Part shown: piece after piece, positions 5,416 through 58,845 of the stretch
Layout of the letters: every line of letters starts with the position of its first letter
Numbering within the stretch: position 1 is the stretch's first letter
Origin: an uncultured Bdellovibrionales bacterium
Lineage (GTDB): Bacteria > Patescibacteriota > Minisyncoccia > Moranbacterales > GWC2-37-73
Direction of reading: 5' to 3'
DNA: 64,000 nt
Assembly (NCBI GenBank): GCA_964609855.1
Contig: CAZSTB010000005.1
Location: 1,467-65,466, forward strand
Position numbers and translations under genes: made by a program
The notes under the pieces: generated by a model
Told to the model about the DNA's origin: nothing
Databases searched by the model: none
The model's input: only the letters and a program-made list of their open reading frames with translations

Positions 5416-6537
5416 ATGTCACTTTTAATTATGCAACATAAATTAGGTGATAAGGCACTCTTGACCATCGTAGGGACACTACTTGTTTTCGGTTTGATTA
5501 TGATTGCCAGTGCGGGCGTAATTTATTCCGAGACTCGCTTTGGCGACTCTTATTATTTTTTTAAGCACCAACTTTTTTTTGGAGTTATTCCCGGGGCGAT
5601 CGCTTTATATGTTTTTCAAAAAATAGATTATCACTTCTGGCGTAAACTTGCGGTTCCGTTCTTTATTCTTTCGGTGATCTTTTTGATTTTGGTTTTTGTG
5701 CCGGGAATTGGTTCTAGGGTTTATGGCGCAAGTCGTTGGCTGCAGCTAGGACCTTTTTCTTTTCAGCCCTCTGAAATGGCAAAGTTGGCAGTGATTATTT
5801 ATCTTGCTGCTTGGCTTGAGAGTCGTGGAACGAAACGCATTAAGGATTTTTTTGAAGGAATGTTGCCATTTTTAGGCATTATCAGTCTCATAGCTTTTCT
5901 TATCATGAAGCAGCCTGACACTGGGACGCTTGGTGTTATTATTTTAACTTCTTTCGCATTGTTTTTTGTTGCAGGTGCTCATATGAGGCACTTATTCTCA
6001 ATGGGAACTCTAGGTTTTATTGCTCTTTGGGTTTTGGTTAAGATTGAACCTTATCGTTTGAATCGAATTTTGGCTTTTCTTGATCCAGGAGCTGATCCTC
6101 AGGGTATTGGGTATCAAATCAATCAAGCATTGCTAGCCGTTGGGAGTGGAGGCCTTTTTGGGGTAGGACTGGGACATAGTAGGCAAAAATATAATTATTT
6201 GCCTGAACCGGTTGGAGATTCTATTTTTGCAGTTATTGGTGAAGAAGTGGGAATGATTGGTGCGTTAATTCTGGTCTCGTTGTTTATTTTGCTGGCGATG
6301 CGTGGGCTAAAAATTGCAAAAAAAGCACCAGACATGTTCGGTACATTAGTAGCCACGGGAATCACTATGTGGATTGTAATTCAGTCCTTTATTAATATTG
6401 GGGCTAACATCGCACTTATTCCACTTACGGGTATTCCATTGCCATTCATTAGTTATGGTGGAACCTCGCTAGTTTTTTTAATGTCATCAATAGGAATATT
6501 GCTTAACATATCCAAACAATCAAATATGGAGAACTAG
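5416..6537 (+). CDS. ftsW: SEDS-family peptidoglycan glycosyltransferase (FtsW/RodA).
   Basis: Multi-TM protein with the conserved FtsW/RodA core. Sits immediately upstream of murG and murC. Confidence 0.8.
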   Translation: MSLLIMQHKLGDKALLTIVGTLLVFGLIMIASAGVIYSETRFGDSYYFFKHQLFFGVIPGAIALYVFQKIDYHFWRKLAVPFFILSVIFLILVFVPGIGSRVYGASRWLQLGPFSFQPSEMAKLAVIIYLAAWLESRGTKRIKDFFEGMLPFLGIISLIAFLIMKQPDTGTLGVIILTSFALFFVAGAHMRHLFSMGTLGFIALWVLVKIEPYRLNRILAFLDPGADPQGIGYQINQALLAVGSGGLFGVGLGHSRQKYNYLPEPVGDSIFAVIGEEVGMIGALILVSLFILLAMRGLKIAKKAPDMFGTLVATGITMWIVIQSFINIGANIALIPLTGIPLPFISYGGTSLVFLMSSIGILLNISKQSNMEN

Positions 6538-6719
6538 CTGGAATGCTAGCTTTTTCCCTGCTTTATTGTTAAAATAGAATAGCAATAAGATGACGTAAAA
6601 AGCAATTTTGAATTTTATAATTTTGAAATATGAATGAGTTTTGAATTATTAATTTTGAAATATTAAATCATTAAGATTTGATTTAAAATTTGGAGTTCGA
6701 AATCCATCATTAACTTTAT

Positions 6720-7829
6720 ATGAGAATAGTATTAACCGGAGGTGGAACGGGCGGGCATTTGACGCCACTTGTAGCTATTGCAGATAAATTAAAGGCTAAA
6801 TTGGGCCCGGAAGCTCAACTTTTATACATTGGTTCAGGGGCGGAAATGGAAAAGCAAATGATGGCACAAGAGGGTATTCCTGCTAAATTCGTCCAGAGCG
6901 GAAAAATGCGACGTTATTTCGCCATGGAAAACTTTGTTGATTTTTTAAAAATTCCCGTGGGATTTATTCAGTCGCTTTGGATCCTGCTTCGCTTTATGCC
7001 TGATGCTATTTTTTCCAAGGGCGGATATGTGGCGGTTCCAATTGTTCTCGCAGCATGGGTGTATCGTATTCCAATTATGATTCATGAATCAGATAGTATC
7101 CCAGGCGTTGCAAATCAATTTTTGTCGAAATTTGCAAATCGTATCGCAGTCGCTTATCCATCAGCTGAACAATATTTCCCGAAAGAAAAAACTGCACTTG
7201 TTGGAAATCCTATCCGTTTTCAGGTGACTGATGGCGACGCCGTGATGTTTCGGCAGCAGCTGGGATTTACGCAATCACGCAAGACTATTTTGATCCTAGG
7301 GGGTTCGCAGGGTTCGCGGGTTATAAATAATGCAATCGTGAAAATTTTACCCAAACTCTTGCATCATTATCAGGTGATTCATCAAACGGGTGAAAAAAAT
7401 TATGAATCAGTTTTACATGATGCTGCATACATGGGAATTAAATCGGGGCATGATGGATATTATGCAACAGCTTTCATGAACGCCAATCAACTTAGAGACG
7501 CGTTCGCGCTCAGCGATTTAGTTATCAGTAGAGCAGGTGCAACATTTATTACTGAAATTGCTGCAAATGGAAAAGCTGCAATTTTGATCCCGATTGCAAC
7601 CAGTGCTAATAATCACCAGGAAATGAATGCTAATGAACTTGCGCACATCGGGGCAGCATTAGTTTTGGAAGAGGGAAATCTCGGCGAGCACATTCTGATG
7701 GAGAAAATTGAAAAGATTTTAAGTGACGAAGTTTTAAGGCAAAGTATGATAGAGAAAATTAAAACCTTTTATCACCCAAATGCAGCGGAAATCATTTCCA
7801 ATGGTGTAATCGAAATTGCACGCGCTTAA
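6720..7829 (+). CDS. murG: Undecaprenyldiphospho-muramoylpentapeptide beta-N-acetylglucosaminyltransferase.
   Basis: MRIVLTGGGTGGHLTP N-terminal signature of MurG. Confidence 0.9.
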   Translation: MRIVLTGGGTGGHLTPLVAIADKLKAKLGPEAQLLYIGSGAEMEKQMMAQEGIPAKFVQSGKMRRYFAMENFVDFLKIPVGFIQSLWILLRFMPDAIFSKGGYVAVPIVLAAWVYRIPIMIHESDSIPGVANQFLSKFANRIAVAYPSAEQYFPKEKTALVGNPIRFQVTDGDAVMFRQQLGFTQSRKTILILGGSQGSRVINNAIVKILPKLLHHYQVIHQTGEKNYESVLHDAAYMGIKSGHDGYYATAFMNANQLRDAFALSDLVISRAGATFITEIAANGKAAILIPIATSANNHQEMNANELAHIGAALVLEEGNLGEHILMEKIEKILSDEVLRQSMIEKIKTFYHPNAAEIISNGVIEIARA

Positions 7830-13420: not shown

Positions 13421-13550
13421 GCAGCGGCATTATAGCAAAGAGAATTATGATGGCTCCAATAACTGCTAGAATGATACCAATAGGACCAAGAATTACTTCC
13501 GGATTTATCAGGCTCACAATCACTGATATAGCCCAAACGAAAACTAGAAT

Positions 13551-13698
13551 AAAAGGTATTATACCCCAGGGCAAGCCCTGGACCCTTCGAGTTCCGTGGC
13601 GCTCCGTCGCTGGGGTATTAAACCTTTTGATATCATCGCTCGCTCGGAAATGAAAGCATGCTTTCATTTCGCTCGCTTCGCTTGATAATAAAAATAAT
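13551..13698 (+). repeat. Composite intergenic repeat R1 (~150 bp, + orientation). Module A aaaaggtattataCCCCAGGGCaaGCCCTGGaccc, a variable middle, module B tttcatttcgctcgcttcgcttgataataaaaat.
   Basis: Strong alignment to the reverse complement of 42916-43052. Shares its ends with 25167-25295 and 28622-28790. Confidence 0.85.
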
Positions 13699-15170: not shown

Positions 15171-15296
15171 GAAAATAATTTAGAATTCGGAATTTCGAAT
15201 AATATCTGAATTACATAACGTTTTAAAAATTCAAAATTTAATCATTAGAAATTCATTCAAAATTCAAAATTATAAATTCAAAATTTGTTAAATATT

Positions 15297-17191: not shown

Positions 17192-17283
17192 TTTTATTTT
17201 TTAATTTACAATGATCAATTTACAATTTACAATTAAATATCAATTACACAATGTAAAATGAAAATTTTGAAAATTCAATGAAA

Positions 17284-17307
17284 ATTGAAAATTGTGAATT
17301 GAAAATT
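17284..17307 (+). promoter_or_regulatory. Conserved 24-mer ATTGAAAATTGTGAATTGAAAATT directly upstream of porB. Identical copy at 48808-48831, related copy near 58807-58840.
   Basis: Exact 24-nt identity between two unlinked intergenic loci. Confidence 0.5.
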
Positions 17308-17315
17308 ATTTAAAT

Positions 17316-23259: not shown

Positions 23260-24528
23260 ATGAATAAGAATAATATCGCATGTCCAAATTGCGGAACAGA
23301 GATCTCTATCGATCAGGTTTTAACGCAGCAAATTGAATCTCAGCTGAAGAAATCTTATGAACTTAAGCAACAAGAATCACAAAAAATGCTCTTGCAGAAG
23401 CAAGAGGAGCTTTTGCTGAAAGAGCAGCAAGTTGATCAAATTGTTGCACAAAAGCTTTCTTCCGAAAAAACATTCTTATTGGATAAAGTTCGCGAAGACG
23501 TGCAAAAAGAAAAAATTCAGGAGATATCTTTTTTAGAGAAACAGCTGCAGGAAAAAAATGACAAACTTACCGAGGCTAGAAACGCGGAATTGGAAATCAG
23601 AAAGGAAAAAATGCAGCTTGAAGAGGATAAACGCTCCTTTGAAATAAAAATGCAGCAACAATTGGATGCGGAGAGGGTAAAGATTGTCGAAGATGTTAAA
23701 AGACAAGCGACCGAGGAGCAGCAATATAAGGTTGCTGAGTTAAATAAGCAGTTGAGTGATGCAATGAAAGTTAATGATGAGATGCGTCGTAAGCTCGAAC
23801 AAGGCTCCCAACAGACACAGGGAGAGGTTTTAGAATTAGAGATAGAAGAACTGCTTCGCAGAGAATTTCCCTTGGATGAAATTGCTCCAGTGGGAAAGGG
23901 GGTTAATGGTGCGGATATAATTCAGCGAGTTCATGATCGCTCAGGCAGACAAAGCGGACAGATTATTTGGGAATTGAAGCGCACTAAAACCTGGAGTGAG
24001 GGCTGGATTCAGAAACTTAAAGATGATCAGAGAATTGCCAAGGCTGATATTGCCGTGTTGATTTCAATTTCGATGCCTGATGGTGTTAAGTCTTTCCAGC
24101 AAAGAAACGGTGTCTGGGTCACTAATTTGAATTCGTTTCTGGGTCTAGCAAGTGCTCTGCGTATGAGTTTGCTGCAAGTTGCATCAATAAAATCGGCATC
24201 TGTTGGCAAAAATGAGAAAATGGAAGTTTTGTATGATTATTTATCCGGCATTGAATTCAAGCAAAAAATTGAAGGTATAGTGGAAGCTTTTGTTGGTATG
24301 AAAGAGGAATTGGAAAAGGAAAAACGCGCATACCAAAAGATCTGGGCACACAGAGAAAAACAAATTCAAAGAGTGGTGGATAATACGGTTGGTATGTACG
24401 GGGACCTCGGGGGACTTATGGGAAAAGCTCTTCCTCAAATAAAGCTTTTAGAAATTACTGATGGAGATGCATTGGAGATTTCAGCTGGCAGCGAAATCGA
24501 GGAAGATCGAACTGCAAGGCTGCTGTAA
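23260..24528 (+). CDS. DUF2130-like protein: N-terminal zinc ribbon, long coiled coil, C-terminal restriction-endonuclease-like domain.
   Basis: CPNCGTEI ribbon. EQ/K-rich heptad region. Conserved C-terminal region. Confidence 0.5.
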   Translation: MNKNNIACPNCGTEISIDQVLTQQIESQLKKSYELKQQESQKMLLQKQEELLLKEQQVDQIVAQKLSSEKTFLLDKVREDVQKEKIQEISFLEKQLQEKNDKLTEARNAELEIRKEKMQLEEDKRSFEIKMQQQLDAERVKIVEDVKRQATEEQQYKVAELNKQLSDAMKVNDEMRRKLEQGSQQTQGEVLELEIEELLRREFPLDEIAPVGKGVNGADIIQRVHDRSGRQSGQIIWELKRTKTWSEGWIQKLKDDQRIAKADIAVLISISMPDGVKSFQQRNGVWVTNLNSFLGLASALRMSLLQVASIKSASVGKNEKMEVLYDYLSGIEFKQKIEGIVEAFVGMKEELEKEKRAYQKIWAHREKQIQRVVDNTVGMYGDLGGLMGKALPQIKLLEITDGDALEISAGSEIEEDRTARLL

Positions 24529-29162: not shown

Positions 29163-29291
29163 TGTAAGGTGTAAATATGTAATGTTTAAGGTAGTATTTA
29201 AATTAATTTACGTGTGAGGTCATTTTCTTAGTTTGAATTAAATAATTATCAAATTTTGAGCGGGCAATGCCTATTCAAATTTCACTATCGG

Positions 29292-30962
29292 ATGAATACC
29301 AAGAAAAAACTACAACTGAAATTCGCAGGCATCGTACTGCTGGCTGTTATGGTCGGGCTAATTGCATATCCTCAATCAGTTAAGCGTGTGCCATACTTGT
29401 ATGAAGCTTTAAATAAATTCAATGTAAAATTGGGATTGGATTTGCAAGGTGGTATTCACCTGGAATATAAAGCAGATGTTACGAATATAGAGCCATCGAA
29501 AATAAGTGAAGCCCTTCAAGGCGCACAAGATGTGATTGAAAGACGTGTAAATGCTTTTGGCGTAGGTGAGCCATTGGTGCAAACAGCAAAAAGTGGAGAT
29601 GATTGGCGGGTAATAGTGGAATTACCAGGAGTTAAAGATATTGAGCAAGCCAAGCAACAAATAAAAGAAACTCCTCTATTGGAATTTAAAGAGGAGGGTA
29701 TGGAGCCCCAAATCGCAGAAATGTTCGATTCTCAAAATGCACAAGCCAAAGAAAAAGCTGAGGGGTTACTAAGGGAAGTTAAGGCTGGGGGTGATTTTGA
29801 GCAACTAGCTAAGGAAAATAGTCAGGATTCTGGCTCGAAAGAAAAAGGTGGAGATTTGGACTTTGTTAAAAAAGGTGCATTTGTTCCTGAATTTGACAAG
29901 GTGCTTTTCGAGGAAAAACTGAAACCAGGAGAAGTTTATCCCGAATTGGTAGAATCGGATTTTGGTTGGCATATTATTAGATTGATGGAAACGAGAGGAG
30001 AAGGGGATGATCTCGAAGTCCGCGCCCAGCATATTCTATTGAGCAAACTGAATCTTGATCAATATCCGCAATTTAAATACAAAGCAACAGGGCTTACTGG
30101 AAAAAACCTAAAAAGTGCAAGTGTAGTTTTTCAGAGTCAAGGAATTGGAGAGCCGCAAATTTCTTTGAAATTCGATGATGAGGGTACAAAGCTTTTTGCC
30201 GACCTGACAAAGGCAAATCTTGGCAAAACAATTGCAATTTTATTGGACGGCGAAATTATCAGCGCACCGACTGTGCAATCTGAAATCACAAATGGTGAGG
30301 CTGTTATTACAGGGCAATTTACCGTACAAGAAGCAAAAGAACTAGCTAAAAGCCTGAATACGGGGGCACTTCCAGTTCCGCTTACGTTGGTTGGGCAACA
30401 AAGTATTGAAGCCACATTAGGCGCTGACTCATTGCGTACGAGTGTTATTGCTGGAGCAATCGGTCTTGGAGCGGTTATACTTTTTATGTTGATATTCTAT
30501 CGTTTCTTGGGTTTAGTCGCATCGTTGGCATTGCTCATCTACACTGCGCTGATGATTGCCATTTTTAAATTTACGGGAATCACACTTACGCTTTCTGGAA
30601 TTGCCGGTTTCGTGCTTTCTATTGGTATGGCCGTGGATGCGAATATCTTAATTTTTGAACGAACTAAAGAGGAAATCAGAAACGGAAGAACCATTGCTAA
30701 TTCACTTGACGAAGGATTTAAGCGGGCATGGACTTCCATTCGCGACGGTAACATCTCATCACTTCTAACTGCAGGTATCCTATATTTGATGGGCACGGGG
30801 TTTGTGAAAGGTTTTGCTGCCGCCCTGTTTATCGGAGTTGTAGTTTCAATGTTTACCGCAGTAGTAATTACTCGCACCATGCTTAAATTTATCATAAGTG
30901 ATTGGATTCATGGTCGCACTTGGATGGTTGGGGTTAGAAAATCCAAAATAAAGTCAGAATAA
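29292..30962 (+). CDS. secD: Protein translocase subunit SecD carrying a parvulin-type peptidyl-prolyl isomerase (PpiC) domain in the periplasmic P1-head position.
   Basis: SecD base (LGLDLQGGIHL, VIERRVNAFGVGEP) and C-terminal SecDF TM core. The internal segment GGDLDFVKKGAFVPEFDKVLFEEKLKPGEVYPELVESDFGWHIIRLMETRG matches the parvulin signature (GGDLGxxxxGxMVPEFE...FGWHII). Confidence 0.8.
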   Translation: MNTKKKLQLKFAGIVLLAVMVGLIAYPQSVKRVPYLYEALNKFNVKLGLDLQGGIHLEYKADVTNIEPSKISEALQGAQDVIERRVNAFGVGEPLVQTAKSGDDWRVIVELPGVKDIEQAKQQIKETPLLEFKEEGMEPQIAEMFDSQNAQAKEKAEGLLREVKAGGDFEQLAKENSQDSGSKEKGGDLDFVKKGAFVPEFDKVLFEEKLKPGEVYPELVESDFGWHIIRLMETRGEGDDLEVRAQHILLSKLNLDQYPQFKYKATGLTGKNLKSASVVFQSQGIGEPQISLKFDDEGTKLFADLTKANLGKTIAILLDGEIISAPTVQSEITNGEAVITGQFTVQEAKELAKSLNTGALPVPLTLVGQQSIEATLGADSLRTSVIAGAIGLGAVILFMLIFYRFLGLVASLALLIYTALMIAIFKFTGITLTLSGIAGFVLSIGMAVDANILIFERTKEEIRNGRTIANSLDEGFKRAWTSIRDGNISSLLTAGILYLMGTGFVKGFAAALFIGVVVSMFTAVVITRTMLKFIISDWIHGRTWMVGVRKSKIKSE

Positions 30963-31080
30963 TTTCGAATTTTTAATTTAGAATTTCGATTCAATTTTGA
31001 ATGACTAAATGTTTGAAACATCGGAACATTAATATTTTCATTCAAAATTGAAAATTGGAAATTCAAAAAATTTATCAACT

Positions 31081-32353: not shown

Positions 32354-33136
32354 TTATGCCTGAATCTCATTGAGCTTCGGCTTATGCTTCTTGGCATACA
32401 TCTCAGCATCTGCTCTTGATAATGCTTCCATTATATCCTCATTAGGATTAAAAACGTGAATCCCCATGGTTATGGAAAGAAGAATTCTCATACTCTTGCA
32501 ATAGAAAGGGGTCTTGCTTAGATTTTCGTGGATTCGCTGACAAATTATGCTGACCTCATTGAGCGCTTCAATTTCGCTATCGGAATTGCTGATTTTCAAG
32601 GCTGCGCAAAATTCATCCCCACCATATCTGCAGAGATAATTTTCCGTATCCTCTCTTATTTCTTGTCGCATAATTTCGGCGCATGTGCATATTGCTGAAT
32701 CTCCGAACGCATGTCCATAAGAGTCATTAATATTTTTGAACTTGTCTATGTCCATGAAAACCAAAATGAGATAGGTCTGCTGTCCCTTTCGGATATCTCT
32801 CAGTACTTGTTTTTGCAGTCGGCGAAGGGATTCTTCCAAGTATAGGCGATTATGAAGTCCCGTTAGGGGATCGCGCATTGAATTTTCCAGATGCTTAAAA
32901 AGACTTTTGCCTCCCCTTGTCCAGCCGTAGGAAAAGAAGAATACTATAAGTGATGGTACGAGGAATAGGAAGTAGCTTTTAAATTCCGGTGCGTTAACTT
33001 CCAAAAATCCGTAAATATAGAGATTTGCAAAAGATGAAGCCAGTCCTGCGATAATTACGATAATCCATCGCTTATTGCTATTTAATTTAACTATCCACCA
33101 GTCGTAGAGTTTCTCTTCCGATTTGCTTAGATGCAT
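32354..33136 (-). CDS. Membrane-anchored GGDEF-domain diguanylate cyclase.
   Basis: RYGGDEF active-site motif. Two N-terminal TM helices. Confidence 0.8.
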   Translation of the reverse strand: MHLSKSEEKLYDWWIVKLNSNKRWIIVIIAGLASSFANLYIYGFLEVNAPEFKSYFLFLVPSLIVFFFSYGWTRGGKSLFKHLENSMRDPLTGLHNRLYLEESLRRLQKQVLRDIRKGQQTYLILVFMDIDKFKNINDSYGHAFGDSAICTCAEIMRQEIREDTENYLCRYGGDEFCAALKISNSDSEIEALNEVSIICQRIHENLSKTPFYCKSMRILLSITMGIHVFNPNEDIMEALSRADAEMYAKKHKPKLNEIQA

Positions 33137-38112: not shown

Positions 38113-38248
38113 CGTAAAAAAAAGCAGAATATTCAAAAACAAAGGAGATTAAACCTCCTTTGTTTTTTGAGTTTTTTCGCTCTTGACAAATATTTTATAT
38201 GTGTTAATATAATTTGAAACCTAATATAATCATATTTTGTCTAAAAAA

Positions 38249-39307
38249 ATGGAAACAGCATCAAATAAGGAGCAACAAGTCACTGCAATTGAAGAGCTAT
38301 GCTTTTCTGATGCCCTGAAGCAACTTGTAAGTGACCTAACTTTACGGTCACAAGAGATCATCTTTACTCGTTATGGTGTTTTTAATTCTCACGCCATGAC
38401 CCTGGAAGAGATCGGTAAAAAATATAGCATCACGCGTGAACGCGTGAGGCAGGTTATTCGTGAAGTTTTGAAAAAAATCCGTGAAAAGAAACAAGATCCG
38501 ATTTTTCTGCAAACAGAAAAGCATATTGTCTTGGCCTTGGAAAAAAATAATGGTATAATGGAGGAAAGTCAGTTGCTTGCTTTTTTAGGGAAAAATGATA
38601 CTAGTCAAAAGGCGGCAGTGAGTTTTTTTCTGGAATGCATCGATTCGATTGAATCTAAGGAAATCAAGGGTGAACTCCTATTTTCTTATGCTAAACCTGA
38701 ATTTGATTTAGAAAACTGGCGCGCAATAAAAAATATTGCAATAGCATCTTTGAAAAACAAGAAAAAACCACTTTCCCTAGAGGAGTTATTTGATGCTATG
38801 AAAGCTGAAGTAAGATTTCCGAATTTTTCAAAAGAAATATTGGCTAGTTTCCTGGCTGTTTCTGAGGAGATTAGGCAAAATACTTTTGAAAAATATGGAA
38901 TCGCTAAATGGAAAGAGATTTCACCGAAAGGAACAAGAGAAAAGGCGTATCTCGTTTTAAAAGAAGCGGCAGAACCTTTGCATTTTAGGGATATCGCAAA
39001 AAAGATAGACAAGTATCATTTGAATAAGAAGAAAACACATCCGCAAACAGTTCATAATGAACTCATTAAAGATAAGAATTTCGTGTTGGTTGGAAGAGGG
39101 ATTTATGCGCTTGTTGAATGGGGTTACAAAAAAGGCACGGTTAAAGATGTTATTGAAGAGATTTTGAAAAAAGCACAAAAACCCCTAAGTAGGGAAGAAG
39201 TGTTAAATAAAGTATTGGAAATCAGACACGTGAAAAAATCCACAATCGTGATAAATTTGAACAACTATTTCTCTAAAAATAAAGGAGGGGTGTATTCAAT
39301 CAAATAA
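38249..39307 (+). CDS. DNA-binding protein with an N-terminal sigma-70 region-4-like HTH and C-terminal HARE-HTH (RNAP delta N-terminal-like) domain(s).
   Basis: MTLEEIGKKYSITRERVRQVIREVLKKIR matches sigma70 region 4. PLHFRDIAKKI...VGRGIYALVEW matches the HARE-HTH pattern. Confidence 0.5.
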   Translation: METASNKEQQVTAIEELCFSDALKQLVSDLTLRSQEIIFTRYGVFNSHAMTLEEIGKKYSITRERVRQVIREVLKKIREKKQDPIFLQTEKHIVLALEKNNGIMEESQLLAFLGKNDTSQKAAVSFFLECIDSIESKEIKGELLFSYAKPEFDLENWRAIKNIAIASLKNKKKPLSLEELFDAMKAEVRFPNFSKEILASFLAVSEEIRQNTFEKYGIAKWKEISPKGTREKAYLVLKEAAEPLHFRDIAKKIDKYHLNKKKTHPQTVHNELIKDKNFVLVGRGIYALVEWGYKKGTVKDVIEEILKKAQKPLSREEVLNKVLEIRHVKKSTIVINLNNYFSKNKGGVYSIK

Positions 39308-39348
39308 GCTGACTTTCGTAAATTCGAATCGGTTAAAATAAAACAAAC

Positions 39349-40626
39349 ATGGATATTCTTTCAAGTTCACTTCAGGAAATATTATCTTCATTAAAAGAGG
39401 TTGGTCAGGTAATGAGCTATACATGGTTCATTGTTTTGCCGCCTCTTTTTTATTTTCTGTTTATGGAGCTTTGGATAGCGCATATTAGTGGATCATATGC
39501 GGGAACTTTGGAATGGGTGCTTTTGGAAATTATCCCCCCAAAAAATATTGAAAAAAGTCCTAAACCTATGGAGGCCCTGTATAATGGTATGGCTGGAACG
39601 GAGGCGAGTTTGAATGTTTTAGACCAATTTGTTGCTGGAAAATTTCAAGATACTTACAGCTTGGAAATAGTAAGTGATGGTGGCGATGTGCATATGTACA
39701 TCAGAACGCAAAAGAAATATCGACATTTAGTTGAAGCGCATCTTTATTCTCAATATCCGGATATTGAAATTTTGGAAGTGCCTGATTATGTTGATGATAT
39801 TCCAAAAGTTGTGCCGAATGCCGAATGGGATCTTTGGGGAGCTGATTTGCAATCAGTAAAAAAAGAACCAGGTTATCCGATTAGAACATACAAAGCTTTT
39901 GAAGAAGATATCACTGGCAAAATGATCGACCCCTTGGCTGGGTTGGCAGAATCGATGGGGAAACTTCCACCGGGGCAAAAACTCTGGATGCAGATCATCA
40001 TTTCCGCACATCCACCGGTATGGAACAGTACGGTTGGCAAAAAACTTACGGATAAGTTGAAATTCAGAGAAGTAAAAAAAGATGATCCCTGGGAAAAATT
40101 CATTCAGGATCTTAAGGATGTTTTTGGAAACCTTTGGGCGGCAACGCAAGGACCCGTCGAATTTGAAAAAGCAAAAAAGAAAGAAGAGTCCCCATTGGAT
40201 ACCAGGCTTTCACCTGGAGAACGCGACGTGCTTAAGGCTGTCGAAGATAATCTGGGGAAAATTCAATTCTTAACGAAAATTAGATTCCTACTCGTCGGAA
40301 GAAAGGAAAATTTTGACAAATCTTTTGTATCTTCTTTCATGGGAGGTATAAAACAATTCGGGGATGACAATCTAAATTCGCTTAAGCCGGAAGATTCGTC
40401 AAAGACGTACGCGAATTTCATCATGAAAAAATCTCGCTTGAGATATCGTCAGAGAAAGATTCTTAGACGTTATCGCGGCCGAAGTAGAGATGGTGTGACC
40501 TTAACAATGAGTAGTGAGGAATTGGCAACGATTTTCCATTTGCCTGATATGAATGTTATGGCACCTTCGCTTTCTCGTGTGGAAGCAAAACGTGGCGGTG
40601 CGCCATCTAACCTGCCTATAGAATAA
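39349..40626 (+). CDS. Hypothetical membrane-anchored protein (425 aa). Partner of the downstream ATPase.
   Basis: N-terminal TM helix (WFIVLPPLFYFLFMELW), large soluble domain, basic C-terminus. Confidence 0.45.
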   Translation: MDILSSSLQEILSSLKEVGQVMSYTWFIVLPPLFYFLFMELWIAHISGSYAGTLEWVLLEIIPPKNIEKSPKPMEALYNGMAGTEASLNVLDQFVAGKFQDTYSLEIVSDGGDVHMYIRTQKKYRHLVEAHLYSQYPDIEILEVPDYVDDIPKVVPNAEWDLWGADLQSVKKEPGYPIRTYKAFEEDITGKMIDPLAGLAESMGKLPPGQKLWMQIIISAHPPVWNSTVGKKLTDKLKFREVKKDDPWEKFIQDLKDVFGNLWAATQGPVEFEKAKKKEESPLDTRLSPGERDVLKAVEDNLGKIQFLTKIRFLLVGRKENFDKSFVSSFMGGIKQFGDDNLNSLKPEDSSKTYANFIMKKSRLRYRQRKILRRYRGRSRDGVTLTMSSEELATIFHLPDMNVMAPSLSRVEAKRGGAPSNLPIE

Positions 40627-40630
40627 AATG

Positions 40631-40706
40631 CAGGAATTAGCTAGTAGGATTTAGCTTGTAGCAAACAGCTTTCCTGATTCCTAACTCCTAATTCCTAACT
40701 CCTGAT
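40631..40706. repeat. Inverted pair of heptamer arrays with no cargo: caggaat|tagctag|taggatt|tagcttg|tagc ... loop ... cctgattcctaactcctaattcctaactcctgatt. Predicted long imperfect hairpin.
   Basis: 7-bp periodicity (TAGNNNN / NNNNCTA). The right array is the reverse complement of AGGAGTTAGGAATTAGGAGTTAGGAATCAGG, matching the arrays at 55307 and 57070. Confidence 0.55.
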
Positions 40707-40734
40707 TTTTAATATTTAATACTACAACGTTAGT

Positions 40735-42885
40735 ATGGCTAATAACGAAATCGCATTCTTTGCAAAAACAAATTTTAGAAATGAAGAAAGAGTTTTCGGA
40801 ATAAAAACTGACGACCGCACCCGGCACATGTACATCATTGGAAAGACCGGTATGGGTAAGACGAACTTGCTGGAAAATCTGGTAGTGCAAGATATTCGCA
40901 ATGGTCATGGAATTTGCTATATCGACCCGCACGGCGACACGGCTGAAAAACTTCTAAAAGCAGTACCGGCGAATCGTATCAATGATGTTATTTATTTGAA
41001 TCCGTCCGACCAAAATTTCCCTTTGGCATTTAATGTTATGGAATCTGTAGATCCTGATTATCGCCATTTGGTGGCGTCGGGCTTGATTGGCGTTTTCAAA
41101 AAAATCTGGGCCGATTCTTGGGGACCTCGCTTGGAATATATTTTACGTAATGCTATCTTAGCGCTTTTGGAATATCCTGGCAGTACTTTGCTTGGAGTTA
41201 CACGTATTTTGGTAGACAAGAAATATCGCGAGAAAGTCGTTGAAAAAGTTACCGATCCTGTAATCAGGCAATTTTGGGTTGATGAATTTCCAAAATGGAG
41301 CGACAAAGTTTTGCAGGAAGTGGTATCTCCGATTCAGAATAAGGTTGGACAATTCTTGTCCAGTTCTTTGATTAGAAACATTGTCGGTCAGACGCAATCT
41401 TCCTTTGATATTAGAAACGCGATGGATACTAGAAAGATTTTAATTCTAAATCTTTCAAAAGGAAGAATCGGTGAAGATAACAGTGCCTTGTTGGGCGCGA
41501 TGATGATCACTAAGATTCAGCTGGCCGCCATGGGACGTGTTGATATTCCTGAAGAAGATCGAAAGGATTTTTATCTGTATGTCGATGAGTTTCAAAACTT
41601 CGCGACGGAATCTTTTGCAAACATTTTGTCTGAAGCTCGAAAGTATCGTTTGAATCTTATTTTAGCGAATCAGTATATCACTCAGATCGACGAAAAAGTT
41701 CGCGACGCGATTTTTGGTAATGCCGGAACGATTATTTCATTTCGTGTGGGCGCTACGGATGCGGAATTTTTGGAAAAAGAATTCGCACCAGTTTTTGTGC
41801 AGAACGATATTGTGAACCTTCCGAAATATAATGTATATCTGAAACTCATGATTGATGGTATTGCGGGCGACGCTTTTTCGGCAAAAGTTTTGCCTCCGGT
41901 GTACATTGGCGACACCATTGATAATGAGGAAAAAATTATTGCGGCTTCACGTGAGCGTTATGCTTCAAGCAAGGAAGAAGTTGAAGACAAGATTTCTCGT
42001 TGGGCAGGTATTATGCCGGCACAAGGATTTCAGACTGTGAACAAGGGTCCGATGGCAGGAGCTACTACCTATCCGAATCCTGCAGCCCGAACGGCGCAAA
42101 ATTATACCCAAAGTCAGCAATTTCAGCCTGCACAAAGCGGTTCGCAAAATTCTGCAAATCAAGTGCAGAACAACTCTCCGCAACCTCAAGCTCCCAAATT
42201 CGAGCCTCAGCGACCCCAAGTGGCTCCACCTGAGCTGCCAAAGGAGACGCGGCTGCAATTTACAGCTCCTTTGCCACCTGTAGCCCCTCAGCAGCCCCAT
42301 AGCTCGATTGAACCTCAGAAAGTTATACAAGCGCAGCCCCAATTCCAGTCAGCTCCCGAATTCGACGATTTAGGAGAATATAATCAACCGGAACCTCCTA
42401 AGCCTGTCTTTGAAGCGGTTTGCGATATGTGCGGCGAAAACATTCAAGTTCCATTTCAGCCGGATGGAAAACGCCCAACTTTTTGCAAGGATTGTCTCAA
42501 GGATTATCAGCGAATGACGGCAAAGGAGAAATTAAACCAGGAAAGAAAGATGCAGCGCGAGCAGGAGGACTCTCGTCAGCAAGCTGTTCCTTTTCAGCCG
42601 CCAAGAATGTCACAGCCAACTCCGAGTTATCCGCCAACGCATGGGATGCAACAACCACAGTATGCCGCACCTTCAAGATCACAGCGAGAGCAACCTAGAA
42701 CATCTACCCCAACCGAAAGACGTGTTGAACCGAAATCTTACGCTCCGCAAGAAGCTCCAATGTCACTTTCTCAAATGTCTCACATTGCACCTAAGAAATT
42801 TAAGTCGCAACGTCAGCGTCCGAATGTGAATTTGGATGAAGTGAGAAATTTGATCAATCAAACGCGCAGTGGCGAAGAAAAATAA
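40735..42885 (+). CDS. TraD/TraG/VirD4-family (type IV coupling protein-like) P-loop ATPase. Soluble form with a Q/P-rich low-complexity linker and a C-terminal CxxC...CxxC zinc ribbon.
   Basis: Walker A YIIGKTGMGKT, Walker B LYVDEFQNF. The C-terminus CDMCGENIQVPFQPDGKRPTFCKDC is a zinc ribbon. Confidence 0.5.
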   Translation: MANNEIAFFAKTNFRNEERVFGIKTDDRTRHMYIIGKTGMGKTNLLENLVVQDIRNGHGICYIDPHGDTAEKLLKAVPANRINDVIYLNPSDQNFPLAFNVMESVDPDYRHLVASGLIGVFKKIWADSWGPRLEYILRNAILALLEYPGSTLLGVTRILVDKKYREKVVEKVTDPVIRQFWVDEFPKWSDKVLQEVVSPIQNKVGQFLSSSLIRNIVGQTQSSFDIRNAMDTRKILILNLSKGRIGEDNSALLGAMMITKIQLAAMGRVDIPEEDRKDFYLYVDEFQNFATESFANILSEARKYRLNLILANQYITQIDEKVRDAIFGNAGTIISFRVGATDAEFLEKEFAPVFVQNDIVNLPKYNVYLKLMIDGIAGDAFSAKVLPPVYIGDTIDNEEKIIAASRERYASSKEEVEDKISRWAGIMPAQGFQTVNKGPMAGATTYPNPAARTAQNYTQSQQFQPAQSGSQNSANQVQNNSPQPQAPKFEPQRPQVAPPELPKETRLQFTAPLPPVAPQQPHSSIEPQKVIQAQPQFQSAPEFDDLGEYNQPEPPKPVFEAVCDMCGENIQVPFQPDGKRPTFCKDCLKDYQRMTAKEKLNQERKMQREQEDSRQQAVPFQPPRMSQPTPSYPPTHGMQQPQYAAPSRSQREQPRTSTPTERRVEPKSYAPQEAPMSLSQMSHIAPKKFKSQRQRPNVNLDEVRNLINQTRSGEEK

Positions 42886-42915
42886 TCTATCAGATAAACT
42901 CCTAGTAATGGGAGT

Positions 42916-43052
42916 TTATTATCAAGCGAAGCGAGCGAAATGAAAAATTAATATTTTCCATTTCCGAGCAAGTGTAGATATCAAAAGGTATAATACCTCG
43001 CAGCTCTGCCCCAAAGGGTCCAGGGCTCTGCCCTGGGGTATGATACCTTTTA
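42916..43052 (-). repeat. Composite intergenic repeat R3 (- orientation), closest relative of R1.
   Basis: Reverse complement: aaaggtatcataccccagggcagagccctggaccc...ggtattataccttttgatatc...tttcatttcgctcgcttcgcttgataataaa. Confidence 0.85.
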
Positions 43053-43076
43053 TTTTTTTGAATAAATTTATGCTTA

Positions 43077-44312
43077 ATGATATTATTAGGGAAAGGGATA
43101 ATTACTAGCTGGTTAACTAATATGAAAGGCGAACACCTAATTCGGATAAGTAATAATGGGGAAGAGGAAATTCAGGGAAAAAAGTATGAATCTGAAGCCG
43201 CTTTGGAAATCATGAAATTACCGGAGATTATCGTAGGGTATGAAAGAAGTGAGATTTTATTATCGATACTTTTTAAGGGATATGACAATGATTGGGGTGG
43301 TCATAAACATGAACTCGTTTCTGAAGTTGATGATTTCTTCGTTGAAAATCCGTTAGATAAAACAGGTATCGATTTTTTGCGTCAAATTGGAGCGCTGAAT
43401 GATGACGGCGTTGACGAAGAAGCCTTATATGAAATGGCTCTGACAATGGATCATCCGGAGCGTATCATTATGGTTAATGAGTTTATCTTAAAAAATAAAG
43501 ACTACATACAGAATCCGGAAAATGTAAGAGAAAAACTGATTGAAGAGCTACACAAATTAGATGCATCGCTTCCCTCATCCCTGAAAAGTCATTTTCGACA
43601 AGCAATATCCGAAGATATGCAGAAGCGGAACGATAAGATCAAGGAAACAGAAAGACAAATTTCTGAACTCATTGATTTTTTCAAACCTGATCCAGCGACG
43701 ACTAAAATTCAATTAATAAAAATTCTTCCTACAGATTTCCTATATCCGGAGCAATCCGGAACGGCTTTTGAATTTGGCAATATGACTATTTTGCGAACCC
43801 ATATCGATAACAATGAAAACCTGGAACATGAATTTTTGCATTGCATCATCAATCCTGTCGTTGAAAAATTAGCAGAAAAATTGAGTGATAAGCAAAAGAA
43901 CAAAATTAGTGAGATGGGGAGTTACAGACTCAAAATTGAGGAGGGATATGGCAATGGATATTTTAGTTTACTCTGCGAAGAATTCATACGGACTTATAAT
44001 GAAGTAATTCAGAAAAATCAGAAACCGCTTTCATATTTGAATTTTATGGAGAAAATAAATGAAATCAGTGATGAAAAATTTCAAGTTGCATTAAAATCAG
44101 ACGAAGCTTTAAAGAGGCGATGCGACCAATTGGATGTTTGTACATTAGATGATTTGAAAAATAACAGCAAGAAATATTATGATAGATTTGGTGACGGTGA
44201 ATTAAGGAGCGTCGTTTACGAATTTTATCAGGCTTATATCAAAGAAAAATCACAAAATGAGCGGATTTCTTTTGAGCGTTTTGCGCTGGATGAATTAGAA
44301 AATTTTATATAA
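43077..44312 (+). CDS. Hypothetical protein (411 aa) with an HExxH motif (HEFLH); putative zinc-metallopeptidase-like.
   Basis: Long ORF. HExxH at about residue 250. No other signature. Confidence 0.4.
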   Translation: MILLGKGIITSWLTNMKGEHLIRISNNGEEEIQGKKYESEAALEIMKLPEIIVGYERSEILLSILFKGYDNDWGGHKHELVSEVDDFFVENPLDKTGIDFLRQIGALNDDGVDEEALYEMALTMDHPERIIMVNEFILKNKDYIQNPENVREKLIEELHKLDASLPSSLKSHFRQAISEDMQKRNDKIKETERQISELIDFFKPDPATTKIQLIKILPTDFLYPEQSGTAFEFGNMTILRTHIDNNENLEHEFLHCIINPVVEKLAEKLSDKQKNKISEMGSYRLKIEEGYGNGYFSLLCEEFIRTYNEVIQKNQKPLSYLNFMEKINEISDEKFQVALKSDEALKRRCDQLDVCTLDDLKNNSKKYYDRFGDGELRSVVYEFYQAYIKEKSQNERISFERFALDELENFI

Positions 44313-44340: not shown

Positions 44341-44997
44341 ATGAGACTATTACTTACATCTGCTGGGCTAACAAATAAGTCAATAATTAATGCGCTCTTG
44401 GAGCTGACGCAAAAACCTTTTTCTGAGCTTAATCTTGTTTTCATTCCAACTGCTGCCAACATTGAAGAGGGGGATAAGGGATGGCTGATTGATGACTTGG
44501 TCAATTGCAAAAACCAAGGATTCAAATCGGTTGATATCGTTGATATTTCAGCATTGCCCAAAAATGATTGGCTTCCAAGACTTGAGGAAGCAGACGTGAT
44601 TTATGTTGAAGGGGGCAACAATTTTTATTTGATGAGATGCTTTGAGAAATCCGGACTGAAAGAAATTTTGGTAGAGCTTTTGAGGACAAGAGTTTATGTC
44701 GGAGTAAGTGCTGGCAGCGTTGTCATGTGTCCAAGCGGAGATCTTTCCATGTCTGAGAGATTGTGGTCAGAAGAAGTCGGAGAACATGATAGTGATGAAG
44801 CTTTGGGGTATGTTGATTTTTTGCTCAGGCCTCATCTCAATTCTCCATATTTTCCAAAGCTTAATTTGGAAAACCTTGAGGAAATTGCAAAAGAATTTCC
44901 TGATACTTTTTATGCGATTGATGATCAAACAGCAATCAAAATCGTGGATGGGAAAGTCGATATCGTTTCCGAAGGTGTTTGGAAGAAATTCAATTAG
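44341..44997 (+). CDS. Peptidase S51 (dipeptidase E / cyanophycinase-like) family protein.
   Basis: LLTSAG...ADVIYVEGGN...VYVGVSAGSV pattern of the class-I glutamine-amidotransferase-like S51 fold. Confidence 0.6.
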   Translation: MRLLLTSAGLTNKSIINALLELTQKPFSELNLVFIPTAANIEEGDKGWLIDDLVNCKNQGFKSVDIVDISALPKNDWLPRLEEADVIYVEGGNNFYLMRCFEKSGLKEILVELLRTRVYVGVSAGSVVMCPSGDLSMSERLWSEEVGEHDSDEALGYVDFLLRPHLNSPYFPKLNLENLEEIAKEFPDTFYAIDDQTAIKIVDGKVDIVSEGVWKKFN

Positions 44998-48717: not shown

Positions 48718-48807
48718 AAGGCTCAAAATAACCAATTTTCAATAATCAATTCTCAATTCACAATGAATTTTCAATTTTCAATTTTTTAATTGCAAATTCT
48801 GGTTTTA

Positions 48808-48831
48808 TTGAAAATTGTGAATTGAAAATTG
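48808..48831 (+). promoter_or_regulatory. Second copy of the conserved 24-mer ATTGAAAATTGTGAATTGAAAATT, about 25 bp upstream of the rplU promoter.
   Basis: Identical to 17284-17307. Confidence 0.5.
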
Positions 48832-48857
48832 GAAATTCTGGCAAAATGCCTTTGTAC

Positions 48858-57964: not shown

Positions 57965-58708
57965 ATGAACGAAAGACAAGAAAAAATTTTAGCAGCTGTC
58001 GTTGAAGAATATACTCAAACGGCTGTTCCTGTTGGGAGTCAGATTCTGGCTGGTAAATATGGCTTTCAGGTAAGCTCGGCAACCATCAGAAATGACATGA
58101 TGACTCTTGAGGAGGAGGGATATTTATATCAGCCACATATTAGTGCTGGTAGAATTCCAACTGATAATGGTTACAGATATTTTGTGGAAGAGGTCATGAA
58201 AGATAAGGTGCTTTCAAAAGAGGAACAGCAGATAATGCAAAAAGAATTTTTAAAATTAAAGGCTCAAAATAAACGACTCACGAGAACAACAGCGAAACTA
58301 CTTTCCCATGTTAGCGGAAATTTTGCTATCAGTAGTTTGCAGGAAAACGATGAATTTGCGGAATTTGGAATGCGCGAACTTATGGAGGCTCCGGAATTCC
58401 AAGAAATGGATGAAATGTGCAGGGTAGTTGAAATGCTGGATTATATCGATGAGAAATTTGACCAGCTGACAAAGGGTATTAAGGAGGGAGAAACGAGGAT
58501 ATTCATTGGGAAAGAAAATCCTATCCATCCAACTGCCAATTGTTCTATGATTGTTTCCCCCTATAGGTTGAAAAACGGCGAGAAAGGAATCCTGGCATTA
58601 ATCGGACCAAAAAGAATGAAGTATGCTCAGAACAAGTCTATGATTGATTATGTAAAAAAGCTCCTGGGAGCATCAATGGTGATAATAGTAATGATAAATA
58701 TCGTTTAA
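57965..58708 (+). CDS. hrcA: Heat-inducible transcription repressor HrcA (short form).
   Basis: N-terminal winged HTH (ILAAVVEEYTQTAVPVGSQILA). CIRCE site upstream. grpE-dnaK downstream. Confidence 0.8.
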   Translation: MNERQEKILAAVVEEYTQTAVPVGSQILAGKYGFQVSSATIRNDMMTLEEEGYLYQPHISAGRIPTDNGYRYFVEEVMKDKVLSKEEQQIMQKEFLKLKAQNKRLTRTTAKLLSHVSGNFAISSLQENDEFAEFGMRELMEAPEFQEMDEMCRVVEMLDYIDEKFDQLTKGIKEGETRIFIGKENPIHPTANCSMIVSPYRLKNGEKGILALIGPKRMKYAQNKSMIDYVKKLLGASMVIIVMINIV

Positions 58709-58845
58709 ATAATTTTCAATGCTCAATTCTCAATTTTCATTGAATTTTCAAATCATAATTATTGATAATGCATCTGTTTAAGAACTTTTTCATTGTAAAT
58801 TGATTGTGAATTGAAAACTGTAAATTGAAAATTGATATTAAATTT

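Follow-up and report, generated by a model that had tools for sequence, protein, structure and literature searches.

A conserved three-gene operon of Patescibacteria and its putative split VirD4/VirB4-class ATPase

Three adjacent genes of a Moranbacteria genome (Patescibacteria/CPR), here called P1, P2 and P3 (nt 38249-42885), form an operon that is conserved across Patescibacteria. With a probability of roughly 0.55, we suggest that the products of P2 and P3 are the separate parts of a membrane-tethered ATPase of the VirD4/VirB4 class, which would have an accessory, T4SS-independent role in nucleic-acid handling. The genes lie in a window of 64 kb, the whole stretch of DNA that was analysed, in which the surroundings of the module are housekeeping chromosome. 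A sequence-only reading had flagged five consecutive plus-strand genes and an intergenic repeat as one possible system, and had proposed a minimal apparatus for DNA or protein translocation or uptake. Such an apparatus is plausible, and all five ORFs exist, consecutive and on the plus strand; the conserved unit comprises the first three.

The same reading could not assign the locus to a described system. This holds for the module, given that no description of the three genes together or of the P2/P3 split was found in the literature, but not for its ATPase, as the orphan coupling-protein homologue of Patescibacteria had already been recorded. Among 5,713 VirD4-like homologues in 2,918 Patescibacteria genomes, only 148 are near virB4, and the orphans far from virB4 may be 'exapted for other functions' (PMC12102498).

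Gene order and conservation of the locus

The features of the locus, all on the plus strand, are as follows.

38135..38167: terminator-like hairpin and T run (13-pair stem, then T tail), closing the upstream pheS-pheT unit
38183..38210: promoter-like site 5' of P1 (TTGACA, 16 nt, TG-TAATAT; consensus match only)
38249..39307 (38237 from TTG): P1, sigma-70 region-4-like HTH and winged-helix domains including HARE-HTH
39349..40626: P2, 425 aa, DUF8128 (PF26449), single transmembrane helix, cytoplasmic alpha/beta domain, conserved C-terminal tail
40627..40734: P2-P3 intergenic hairpin, U-rich run after it (RNA fold -25.7 kcal/mol, z = -2.45)
40735..42885: P3, 716 aa, soluble TrwB/TraD/VirD4-like P-loop ATPase
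42893..42920: hairpin just 3' of the P3 stop codon (12-pair stem, fold of nt 42886-43076)
42953..43056: structured hairpin repeat, not part of the module; second copy at 13548-13655, minus strand
43077..44312: P4, 411-aa HExxH protein (HEFLH at residues 251-255), lineage-specific and not part of the module
44341..44997: P5, Peptidase_S51 (PepE-like; Pfam 3.9e-30), not part of the module

The site upstream of P1 is weak evidence for a promoter, because promoter-like sites in the region are no more numerous than in shuffled sequence. The hairpin between P2 and P3 could conceivably be an attenuator or a processing site. The hairpin behind P3, which has no clear T run, probably marks the end of the operon.

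Synteny was compared in 80 related genome loci of several CPR classes, with records from Moranbacteria, Uhrbacteria, Kerfeldbacteria, Buchananbacteria and Parcubacteria. In 66 of them P2 immediately precedes P3 (median gap ~20 nt), and the order P1-P2-P3 is kept in 61; in the remaining five P2-bearing loci the sequence or contig starts at or just before P2. The genes flanking the trio vary. A pairing of the ATPase with the membrane protein encoded before it had been proposed, to be checked by gene neighbourhood, and it is borne out by their adjacency and by their fusion in other lineages; the sigma-r4/HARE-HTH gene accompanies them in the 61 loci and, as SEML1_0294 beside SEML1_0293, in S. epibionticum.

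It is highly improbable that the five genes and the repeat form one system, or that the ATPase is part of an anti-phage defence island (MADS mad8-like or HerA-like). The five genes are indeed consecutive on one strand, and P3 matches the PADLOC mad8 model at 9e-19 and HerA models weakly. However, the five-gene system is contradicted by synteny: homologues of P4 (phmmer, tblastn) and P5, and any counterpart of the repeat, are missing from all 80 related loci, and in locus L002 mnmA comes straight after the ATPase gene. P4, P5 and the repeat are an insertion specific to this lineage, located between P3 and mnmA and unrelated to the module. In Pfam, P4 has a sub-threshold match to DUF4932 and nothing else, and it has no PDB match; the repeat's earlier label 'R3' could not be reproduced, since the window holds a single other true copy. 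As for defence, the search that gave the PADLOC mad8 match detected no other defence gene, and the module has a housekeeping context and is conserved phylum-wide, whereas defence islands are patchy.

P2 and P3 as parts of one putative motor

P2 has a single hydrophobic segment (residues 26-46, Kyte-Doolittle 1.76), in agreement with the one transmembrane helix first noted. Its C-terminal tail, GGAPSNLP (residues 416-423), is conserved. DUF8128 is carried by a database protein 100% identical to P2. Every one of the top 13 PDB matches of the P2 structure model (pLDDT 79) is a TrwK/VirB4 chain (E from 5e-5, probability 0.99 or higher), and no other chains were matched significantly. The TM-scores are low (0.34-0.39) and indicate fold likeness only; hhalign found no sequence-level similarity to TrwK or TrsD. 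The model suggests that the cytoplasmic domain of P2 resembles the TrwK/VirB4 fold.

P3 has the following parts, also on the plus strand.

40840-40863 (residues 36-43): Walker A, GKTGMGKT
41575-41601 (residues 281-289): Walker B, LYVDEFQNF
42010-42405 (residues 426-557): P/Q-rich low-complexity tether 1 (P 19%, Q 18%)
42421-42495 (residues 563-587): treble-clef zinc ribbon CDMCGENIQVPFQPDGKRPTFCKDC, CxxC-x17-CxxC (PF23477, TIGR04272)
42511-42744 (residues 593 to ~670): P/Q-rich low-complexity tether 2
42757-42855 (residues 675-707): conserved C-terminal tail motif

Both Walker motifs, the Q/P-rich region and the absence of a transmembrane segment (maximum hydropathy 1.27) had been recognized from the letters. 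The zinc ribbon (PF23477, 41.6 bits, cut-off 27; TIGR04272, 43.5 bits, cut-off 36) had been placed at the C-terminal end of the protein, but 129 residues follow it, including the conserved tail. Pfam matches of P3 are TrwB_AAD_bind (4.5e-11), TraG-D_C and DUF87, and profile matches include TrwB (2.6e-12), DotL (1.5e-8) and HerA (8e-4). Given that the P3 structure model is poor (pLDDT 54), its motor fold is assigned from sequence profiles only.

Relatives with both parts in one chain lead us to suggest that P2 and P3 each make up half of a motor that elsewhere is encoded as a single protein. In PHROG 5156 (824 profile positions), P2 residues 99-404 align to positions 75-359 and P3 residues 25-421 to positions 407-805. 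A 1035-aa protein of an integrase-bearing element (L088) has a P2-like part (123-377) and a P3-like part (389-797) only ~11 residues apart. Among the predicted viral protein structures of the BFVD library, the P2 model matches Bacillus phage proteins of 825-913 aa (E 5e-18). We regard PHROG 5156/Bacillus phage G gp156, the phage JL and Slash proteins and L088 as true homologues that are fused where P2 and P3 are split. A transmembrane helix is missing from L088, and C-terminal to its motor a DNA-binding HTH_17 domain takes the place of the P3 zinc ribbon, which supports a link to nucleic acid. The fused relatives belong to phages or mobile elements and have no neighbouring P1, whereas P2-P3 occur with P1.

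P1 and its linkage to P2

P1 is 356 aa long if read from the TTG start; the public gene call begins at the ATG at 38249 and gives 352 aa. The sigma-70 region-4-like HTH and the HARE-HTH domain claimed for it both score above their Pfam cut-offs (Sigma70_r4, residues 33-83, 42.2 bits against 24.1; HARE-HTH, residues 235-295, 56.9 bits against 25.9), and residues 21-89 match region 4 of RpoS, RpoD and SigA in solved structures (E ~6e-9). The HARE-HTH is like that of the RNA polymerase delta subunit of low-GC bacteria (TIGR04567 40.3 bits, below the cut-off of 42). P1 shares the region 4.2-like helix-turn-helix of sigma-70 factors but has no sigma region 2 or 3, and for this reason we rejected it as a sigma factor. 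Its homologue SEML1_0294 further differs from sigma-70 and delta in that its region 4 is joined to three winged-helix domains (ECOD structural-domain assignment). The most likely binding partners of P1 are DNA and/or RNA polymerase.

In published Tn-seq data for the saccharibacterium S. epibionticum, SEML1_0294 is essential and the adjoining SEML1_0293, a 921-aa ATPase, is non-essential (PMC10633639 supplements). The ATPase Pfam matches of SEML1_0293 are at residues 402-719, and from its length and this domain position we infer that its N-terminal 400 residues are P2-like. With P1 essential and the ATPase dispensable in this organism, P1 must do something beyond serving the motor.

P1-P2 is the tightest linkage in the module, because P3 is located apart from P1-P2 in one clade of 13 loci and a Falkowbacteria genome keeps P1-P2 together without P3. 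The translocase model leaves this linkage unexplained.

P1 could instead be an essential RNA polymerase-associated factor (sigma-4/delta-like), with P2, alone or with P3, as an anti-sigma-like membrane tether acting by sequestration or remodelling. This would fit with P1 being essential and combining a sigma region 4 of genuine group-1/2 type with a HARE-HTH of delta type, with the position of a sigma-like gene beside that of a single-pass membrane protein, and with the survival of this adjacency where P3 has moved away. We nevertheless consider it quite unlikely: in the fused relatives, which lack a neighbouring P1, P2 forms the N-domain of an ATPase family; Pfam and NCBIfam detected no anti-sigma domain in P2; and losing the sole regulator of an essential factor should matter more than Tn-seq shows.

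Proposed mechanism and related translocases

In the split-ATPase reading that we prefer, P2 would be a single-pass membrane anchor with a cytoplasmic N-domain of predicted TrwK/VirB4-like fold, and P3 a TrwB/TraD-type P-loop motor, presumably hexameric, that would bear the zinc ribbon and the conserved C-terminal peptide on long flexible tethers. P2 would tether the P3 ring to the membrane on its cytoplasmic side. There the ring would spend ATP on moving or otherwise handling nucleic acid (most likely DNA), with substrate contact via the zinc ribbon and perhaps P1. The machine would be independent of a T4SS, and its role accessory (e.g., DNA trafficking or segregation) and not essential.

Like type IV coupling proteins (TrwB of R388, TraD, VirD4, DotL), P3 has a P-loop domain in which a helical insert separates Walker A from Walker B, and these proteins also supply its best Pfam, NCBIfam and PDB matches (including SXT_TraD at 7e-15); all P3 scores against TraD/VirD4 equivalog models fall well short of the curated full-length cut-offs. 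Unlike these proteins, P3 has no N-terminal transmembrane domain, the anchor being the separate DUF8128 protein, carries a zinc ribbon on a P/Q-rich tether, has no relaxase or T4SS genes nearby, and belongs to a chromosomal, phylum-wide and very strongly conserved module. P2 and P3 could still be the true coupling protein of a Patescibacteria T4SS, distant from virB4 and feeding a VirB4/VirB6 channel; TrwB, DotL and TraD are nearest to P3 by profile, the P2 fold is like that of VirB4, the ATPase with which coupling proteins work, and coupling-protein genes are at times far from virB4 (PMC12102498). We think this unlikely given the few homologues near virB4, the dispensable S. epibionticum homologue in an organism whose T4SS genes are essential and which has another, essential ATPase with a TraM-recognition domain (SEML1_0142), the rarity of relaxases in the phylum, and the lack of T4SS genes among the 30 further ORFs of the window (Pfam scan). 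The ATPase domain of the window is 66-96% identical to those of CPR relatives of several classes, and conservation this high across classes seems atypical for coupling proteins.

VirB4 (TrwK of R388) consists of an N-domain plus a C-terminal ATPase, a layout shared by P2+P3 and the fused relatives. P3 is nearer to the coupling proteins, however, as TIGR00929 matches its Walker A region only (E 0.0025), and P2-P3 are not beside T4SS genes. Like P2, TrsD of pGO1 is a stand-alone protein; it has remote homology to the VirB4 N-terminus, and such proteins are common in Patescibacteria (PMC12102498).

P2 and P3 might also be a second chromosome translocase of the FtsK/SftA kind, active in cell division, for which P1 would recognize the DNA; this seems to us rather improbable. 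We take P3 and FtsK/SpoIIIE/SftA to belong to the same superfamily of ASCE (additional strand, catalytic glutamate) P-loop ring ATPases. FtsK has a long tether and a small nucleic-acid-binding domain, the P/Q-rich tether and appendage of P3 resemble this layout, and membrane association would be common to both; SftA of B. subtilis, a dispensable second translocase, is a precedent. However, P3 cannot be classed as an ordinary FtsK/SpoIIIE protein or helicase, the outcome that would have spoken against the sequence-only reading: FtsK is absent from its profile and PDB matches, as are FtsK_SpoIIIE, 4TM and gamma domains, and S. epibionticum also encodes a complete, true FtsK. In the 13-locus clade the ATPase gene is inside a division cluster (ftsZ - nrdR - nrdD - nrdG - ATPase - DEDD exonuclease - GT2 - DivIC - DD-carboxypeptidase - FtsE - FtsX), a context confined to that clade.

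The conserved three-gene unit

The sequence-only reading had suggested that a run of five plus-strand genes could form one translocation or uptake system. ORF and domain scans bear out, with small corrections, the five consecutive ORFs (P1 to P5) and the features described for them.

38249-39307, plus strand: P1, 352 aa from the ATG of the public gene calls, with sigma region 4 and HARE-HTH domains
39349-40626, plus strand: P2, 425 aa, with one hydrophobic helix at 26-46
40735-42885, plus strand: P3, 716 aa, an ATPase with Pfam matches to TrwB_AAD_bind, TraG-D_C and DUF87
43077-44312, plus strand: P4, with HEFLH at 251-255 and a match to DUF4932 that is sub-threshold only
44341-44997, plus strand: P5, a Peptidase_S51 protein
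42953-43056, plus strand, and 13548-13655, minus strand: the two copies in the window of a structured, roughly 100-nt repeat

Related loci were found by scanning one genome per species with the ATPase alignment, which confirmed at least 573 relatives, the count for the first 599 pattern matches; 80 of these loci were kept for synteny, and their six-frame ORFs were searched with the window proteins and a P2 profile. P2 lies directly 5' of P3 in 66 of the 80 loci, the two being separated by a median of about 20 nt from stop to start, and P1-P2-P3 is complete, in the same order and on the same strand, in 61. In the remaining five P2-bearing loci, the available sequence or the contig starts at P2 or shortly before it. 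Searches with phmmer, tblastn and blastn recovered neither P4 nor P5 nor the hairpin repeat from any of the 80 loci, and in one related locus (L002) P3 is directly followed by mnmA. Given the recurrence of the trio and the absence of the other elements, the conserved unit consists of three genes, and the right-hand third of the interval first flagged is a lineage-specific insertion. The idea of a single system thus holds for P1-P2-P3 but not for P4 and the repeat, and the synteny data contradict a five-gene system or a defence island. The defence-system reading, prompted by mad8 and HerA matches of the ATPase, was ruled out on context.

The flanking genes vary by lineage, with pheST upstream in the closest relatives only and mnmA and alaS often downstream. 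By record title the lineages include Moranbacteria, Uhrbacteria, Kerfeldbacteria, Buchananbacteria and Parcubacteria, and the closest homologues are named Moranbacteria or Moraniibacteriota. In the Saccharibacterium S. epibionticum, SEML1_0294 and SEML1_0293, the homologues of P1 and of the ATPase, are adjacent, matching the P1-ATPase pairing. Patescibacteria are a very large, mostly uncultured radiation with tiny genomes. The ATPase domain is 66-96% identical between the window genome and relatives of several classes, and conservation this strong in such small genomes suggests that the unit is likely central to their biology.

Two exceptions are informative about linkage within the trio.

4860-7425 of locus L105 (Falkowbacteria GCA_026396875.1): P1 and P2 adjacent without P3, with glycosyltransferase genes next
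L060 1-15659, with L051, L052, L056, L057, L059, L061, L063, L064, L067, L068, L072 and L075: 13 loci in which the ATPase, with its zinc ribbon, has another conserved context

The first indicates that P1 and P2 are linked at least as tightly as P2 and P3. The 13 loci group as a single clade by neighbour joining and share the order ftsZ - nrdR - nrdD - nrdG - ATPase - DEDD exonuclease - GT2 - DivIC - DD-carboxypeptidase - FtsE - FtsX. The ATPase here is away from P1-P2, within a cell-division cluster and flanked by nrdG and a DEDD (RNase T-like) exonuclease gene. That the ATPase is paired with an exonuclease next to a ribonucleotide reductase may point to a role in processing or salvaging nucleic acid.

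An ATPase split between motor and probable anchor

Both nucleotide-binding motifs of P3 are intact (Walker A at 36-43, Walker B at 281-289), and the protein scores above the Pfam cut-offs for TrwB_AAD_bind (42.7 bits, cut-off 20.5) and TraG-D_C (29.7 bits, cut-off 22). The Pfam alignment covers residues 25-335, including the stretch between Walker A and Walker B where type IV coupling proteins have an all-alpha domain inserted. The AF2 model of P3 is poor as a whole (pLDDT 54), with helices at 107-231 at a local pLDDT of about 70-90, and Foldseek searches with this model returned only noise. Against the PDB, a profile of the ATPase domain matched TrwB (E 2.6e-12), DotL (1.5e-8) and then HerA (8e-4); it found no VirB4 chain, and no FtsK chain at E <= 0.1. 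This speaks against a rival explanation, a second FtsK/SftA-like division translocase, and against the ordinary FtsK/SpoIIIE profile that would have undercut the sequence-only reading. Neither Pfam nor NCBIfam gave a match at E <= 0.01 to the FtsK_SpoIIIE motor, the 4TM N-domain or the gamma winged helix.

P3 has no transmembrane segment: its maximum 19-residue hydropathy is 1.27, and Walker A is already reached at residue 36. Beyond the motor are two P/Q-rich segments, at 426-557 and from 593 to about 670, and between them, at 563-587, a CxxC-x17-CxxC treble-clef zinc ribbon with four Cys, which matches PF23477 (zf_Tbcl_2; 41.6 bits, cut-off 27) and TIGR04272 (43.5 bits, cut-off 36). The ribbon had been placed at the end of the protein; it is in fact internal, and a conserved tail, PMSLSQ..APKKFK..VNLDEVR, lies C-terminal to it at 675-707. 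The ribbon motif is kept in 70 of 80 relatives; a search of the window and the 80 loci found no protein other than P3 that carries it. Only in archaeal members, small proteins of Methanosarcina, has the CxxC-x17-CxxC domain been demonstrated to bind zinc (PMC12704099).

The membrane partner belongs to PF26449 (DUF8128), a match precomputed for the database protein P0121, which is 100% identical to P2, and for all 119 other homologues listed; a local Pfam scan of P2 gave no match, and no mention of DUF8128 was found in the literature searched. The AF2 model of P2 (pLDDT 79, pTM 0.74) has TrwK/VirB4 chains of R388 at ranks 1-13 of a Foldseek search against the PDB, as its sole significant matches (E 5e-5 to 2e-3, probability at least 0.99, TM 0.34-0.39), followed by weaker matches to chains of the ESX-3 complex. 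At the sequence level, P2 could be linked neither to the PDB, TrwK, TrsD of pGO1 or the N-terminal half of a 708-aa Bradyrhizobium plasmid ATPase, nor, by tblastn, to plasmids.

P2 ends in a conserved tail, G-A/V-P-x-N-L-P, which is modelled with low confidence and which we read as a putative docking peptide. The motif (A/V)P(P/S)xLP occurs twice in the longer DUF8128 proteins P0385, P0373, P0381, P0308 and P0321, where the first copy closes the core domain and, past a low-complexity spacer, the second closes the chain. Such duplication suggests a short linear docking motif. In the P2-P3 gap (40627-40734), a hairpin (AGGAATTAG...CTAATTCCT) precedes a U-rich run; this structure could tune the ratio at which anchor and motor are expressed.

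The relationship between the two proteins is clearest where they are fused. On PHROG 5156 (824 profile positions), P2 residues 99-404 align to positions 75-359 and P3 residues 25-421 to positions 407-805 (E 1e-63). A single-chain homologue is also encoded on an IMG/VR contig.

4804-7911 of L088 (IMGVR_UViG_3300036781_000821, IMG/VR; GC 56%): fused homologue, 1035 aa

This protein, whose gene lies 1.8 kb from an integrase gene, has a P2-like part at 123-377, about 11 residues of connection, a P3-like part at 389-797 and, further on, a C-terminal HTH_17; it has no transmembrane helix. By eye only, a PD-(D/E)xK nuclease-like segment lies between its ATPase and HTH_17. In BFVD, the P2 model resembles Bacillus phage proteins of 825-913 aa, among them gp156 of phage G (E 5e-18), which tblastn with the P3 domain also finds. 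Of the 47 phage records that hold an ATPase homologue, 46 belong to phages of Bacillus and related genera; records H21-H40 include Bacillus phage G gp156, SPO1 gp27.4 and Geobacillus phage TP-84. The P2-like N-domain was demonstrated for the homologues of phage G (gp156), JL and Slash only.

By this split/fusion relationship, P2 and P3 correspond to the two halves of a single enzyme. The suggestion that the upstream 425-aa protein could be the membrane partner of the ATPase is thereby strongly supported, by adjacency in 66/80 loci and by fused relatives. Because the P2 domain of the fused forms shares its chain with an ATPase that is cytoplasmic, most of P2 probably lies in the cytoplasm, with its N-terminus outside. 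The presence of fused relatives on phages and integrative elements suggests an origin on mobile elements.

Family placement and possible function

With type IV coupling proteins (VirD4/TrwB/TraD), P3 shares the TrwB-type nucleotide-binding domain with Walker A and B. In coupling proteins, however, an N-terminal TM domain is part of the same chain, whereas here the anchor is the separate P2. A distant coupling protein serving the T4SS is a further rival, to which the TrwB-type domain would be suited, but P3 lacks the hallmark association of this family with a T4SS and relaxase: Pfam found no T4SS or relaxase domain in the five module ORFs or in 30 further ORFs of the window. With respect to VirB4, P3 scores 16.1 bits on TIGR00929 against a cut-off of 643, in the Walker A region only, and the resemblance of P2 to the VirB4 N-terminal domain is one of fold in a predicted model, without sequence support. 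The description that fits the pair best is a motor of VirD4-like type whose N-domain may be VirB4-like. The pair belongs to neither the VirD4 nor the VirB4 family, and is probably a split VirD4/VirB4-class ATPase anchored in trans.

Quinonero-Coronel et al. 2025 counted 5,713 VirD4-like homologues in 2,918 Patescibacteria genomes (PMC12102498), only 148 of the 5,713 near virB4 (PMC12102498). The homologue of S. epibionticum was dispensable, and exaptation 'cannot be ruled out' (PMC12102498). This remark on orphan T4CPs partly anticipates the P2-P3 family (PMC12102498). In the Tn-seq data of Wang et al. 2023, SEML1_0294 is essential in all three columns, and SEML1_0293 is non-essential, with 5817, 2939 and 1372 reads over three read-count columns (PMC10633639). 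SEML1_0293 has 921 aa with ATPase Pfam matches at 402-719 (PMC10633639), and from this length and layout we infer that its first 400 residues are DUF8128-like. Another ATPase with a TraM-recognition domain, SEML1_0142, is essential in this species (PMC10633639). The genome also encodes a complete FtsK, SEML1_0096 (PMC10633639), which rules out a role as sole FtsK replacement.

P1, the constant neighbour of P2-P3, is built from sigma-4 and winged-helix modules: Pfam places Sigma70_r4 at 33-83 and HARE-HTH at 235-295, both above their cut-offs, and the N-terminal part resembles region 4 of RpoS, RpoD and SigA chains in the PDB (E about 6e-9). Its counterpart SEML1_0294 (349 aa) has Sigma70_r4 at 27-72 and HARE-HTH at 225-283, with a tri-helical and three winged domains by ECOD (PMC10633639). 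Region 4 is the sole sigma match of P1, and all sigma equivalog scores lie far below cut-off; P1 is thus not a sigma factor of the sigma-70 family, in which regions 2 and 4 occur together. Upstream, pheT is closed by a terminator-like hairpin, and a promoter-like TTGACA/TAATAT site lies 5' of P1. As P1 is essential and the motor is not, P1 must do something else as well, probably in transcription. A third rival would make P2 an anti-sigma-like regulatory tether for P1; the tight linkage of P1 and P2 is a fact that the motor model leaves unexplained.

In the main reading, which we hold slightly more likely than not, P2 would fix a P3 ring to the membrane on its inner side, this ring would act on nucleic acid, and the machine would have an accessory, T4SS-independent role. 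Three features point to a nucleic-acid substrate: TrwB-class motors are DNA-dependent ATPases; the L088 protein carries a DNA-binding HTH beyond the motor, at the place of the P3 zinc ribbon; and P1 is made of DNA-binding and RNA-polymerase-binding modules. A bolder reading, to which we give about one chance in four, makes the family a phylum-wide, T4SS-independent DNA (or RNA) pump. The ATPase, a deep branch of the VirB4/VirD4 type whose N-domain is VirB4-like, would have been domesticated from mobile elements; it would be anchored in trans by DUF8128, work with an essential sigma-4/winged-helix factor and move nucleic acid at the membrane. If this bolder reading is correct, such a pump could serve, for example, in scavenging host nucleic acid, in DNA donation or uptake, or in chromosome handling in ultrasmall cells.

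To the earlier published counts of thousands of orphan VirD4-like genes, perhaps exapted, the present analysis adds DUF8128 as a defined partner that supplies the N-terminal and membrane half so far lacking from the enzyme, a third gene conserved with the pair and essential in the only species amenable to genetics, and fused relatives on phages and integrative elements. DUF8128 thereby gains a working annotation, and function can be tested directly in S. epibionticum, where the ATPase is deletable.

The insertion and the rest of the window

P4 has no PDB, PADLOC or PHROG match. A hairpin lies 3' of the P3 stop codon, and the fold of nt 42886-43076, the repeat region, has z = -5.3. The repeat has two palindromic arms (GGTATNATACC) around a GC-rich hairpin (CCAGGGC...GCCCTGG), then a T run, and may act as a terminator, encode a small RNA or represent a miniature mobile element; Rfam has no family for it or elsewhere in the region. 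A third copy near 32.2 kb was ruled out by alignment.

The rest of the window is housekeeping (mur genes, ftsW, murG, ftsEX, RF2, secDF, aminoacyl-tRNA synthetases, dnaB, recR, dnaK), with no mobile-element genes among the ORFs scanned. AT-rich intergenic repeats of AATTGAAAATTG / ATTTTCAATT units (families D1-D3 and D6) lie upstream of several plus-strand genes and may be promoter-region or regulator-binding arrays.

15233-15286, 17255-17308, 31037-31068, 48729-48835 and 58706-58834: AT-rich repeats

The SecD homologue (29256-30962, plus strand) has a PpiC-type Rotamase domain inserted at 158-246, between SecD_1st and the SecDF P1 head, which seems an unusual architecture. In this small genome, a protein with a GGDEF diguanylate-cyclase domain is encoded at 32354-33136 (minus strand), and a DUF2130 protein at 23260-24528 (plus strand), directly 3' of ftsE-ftsX.
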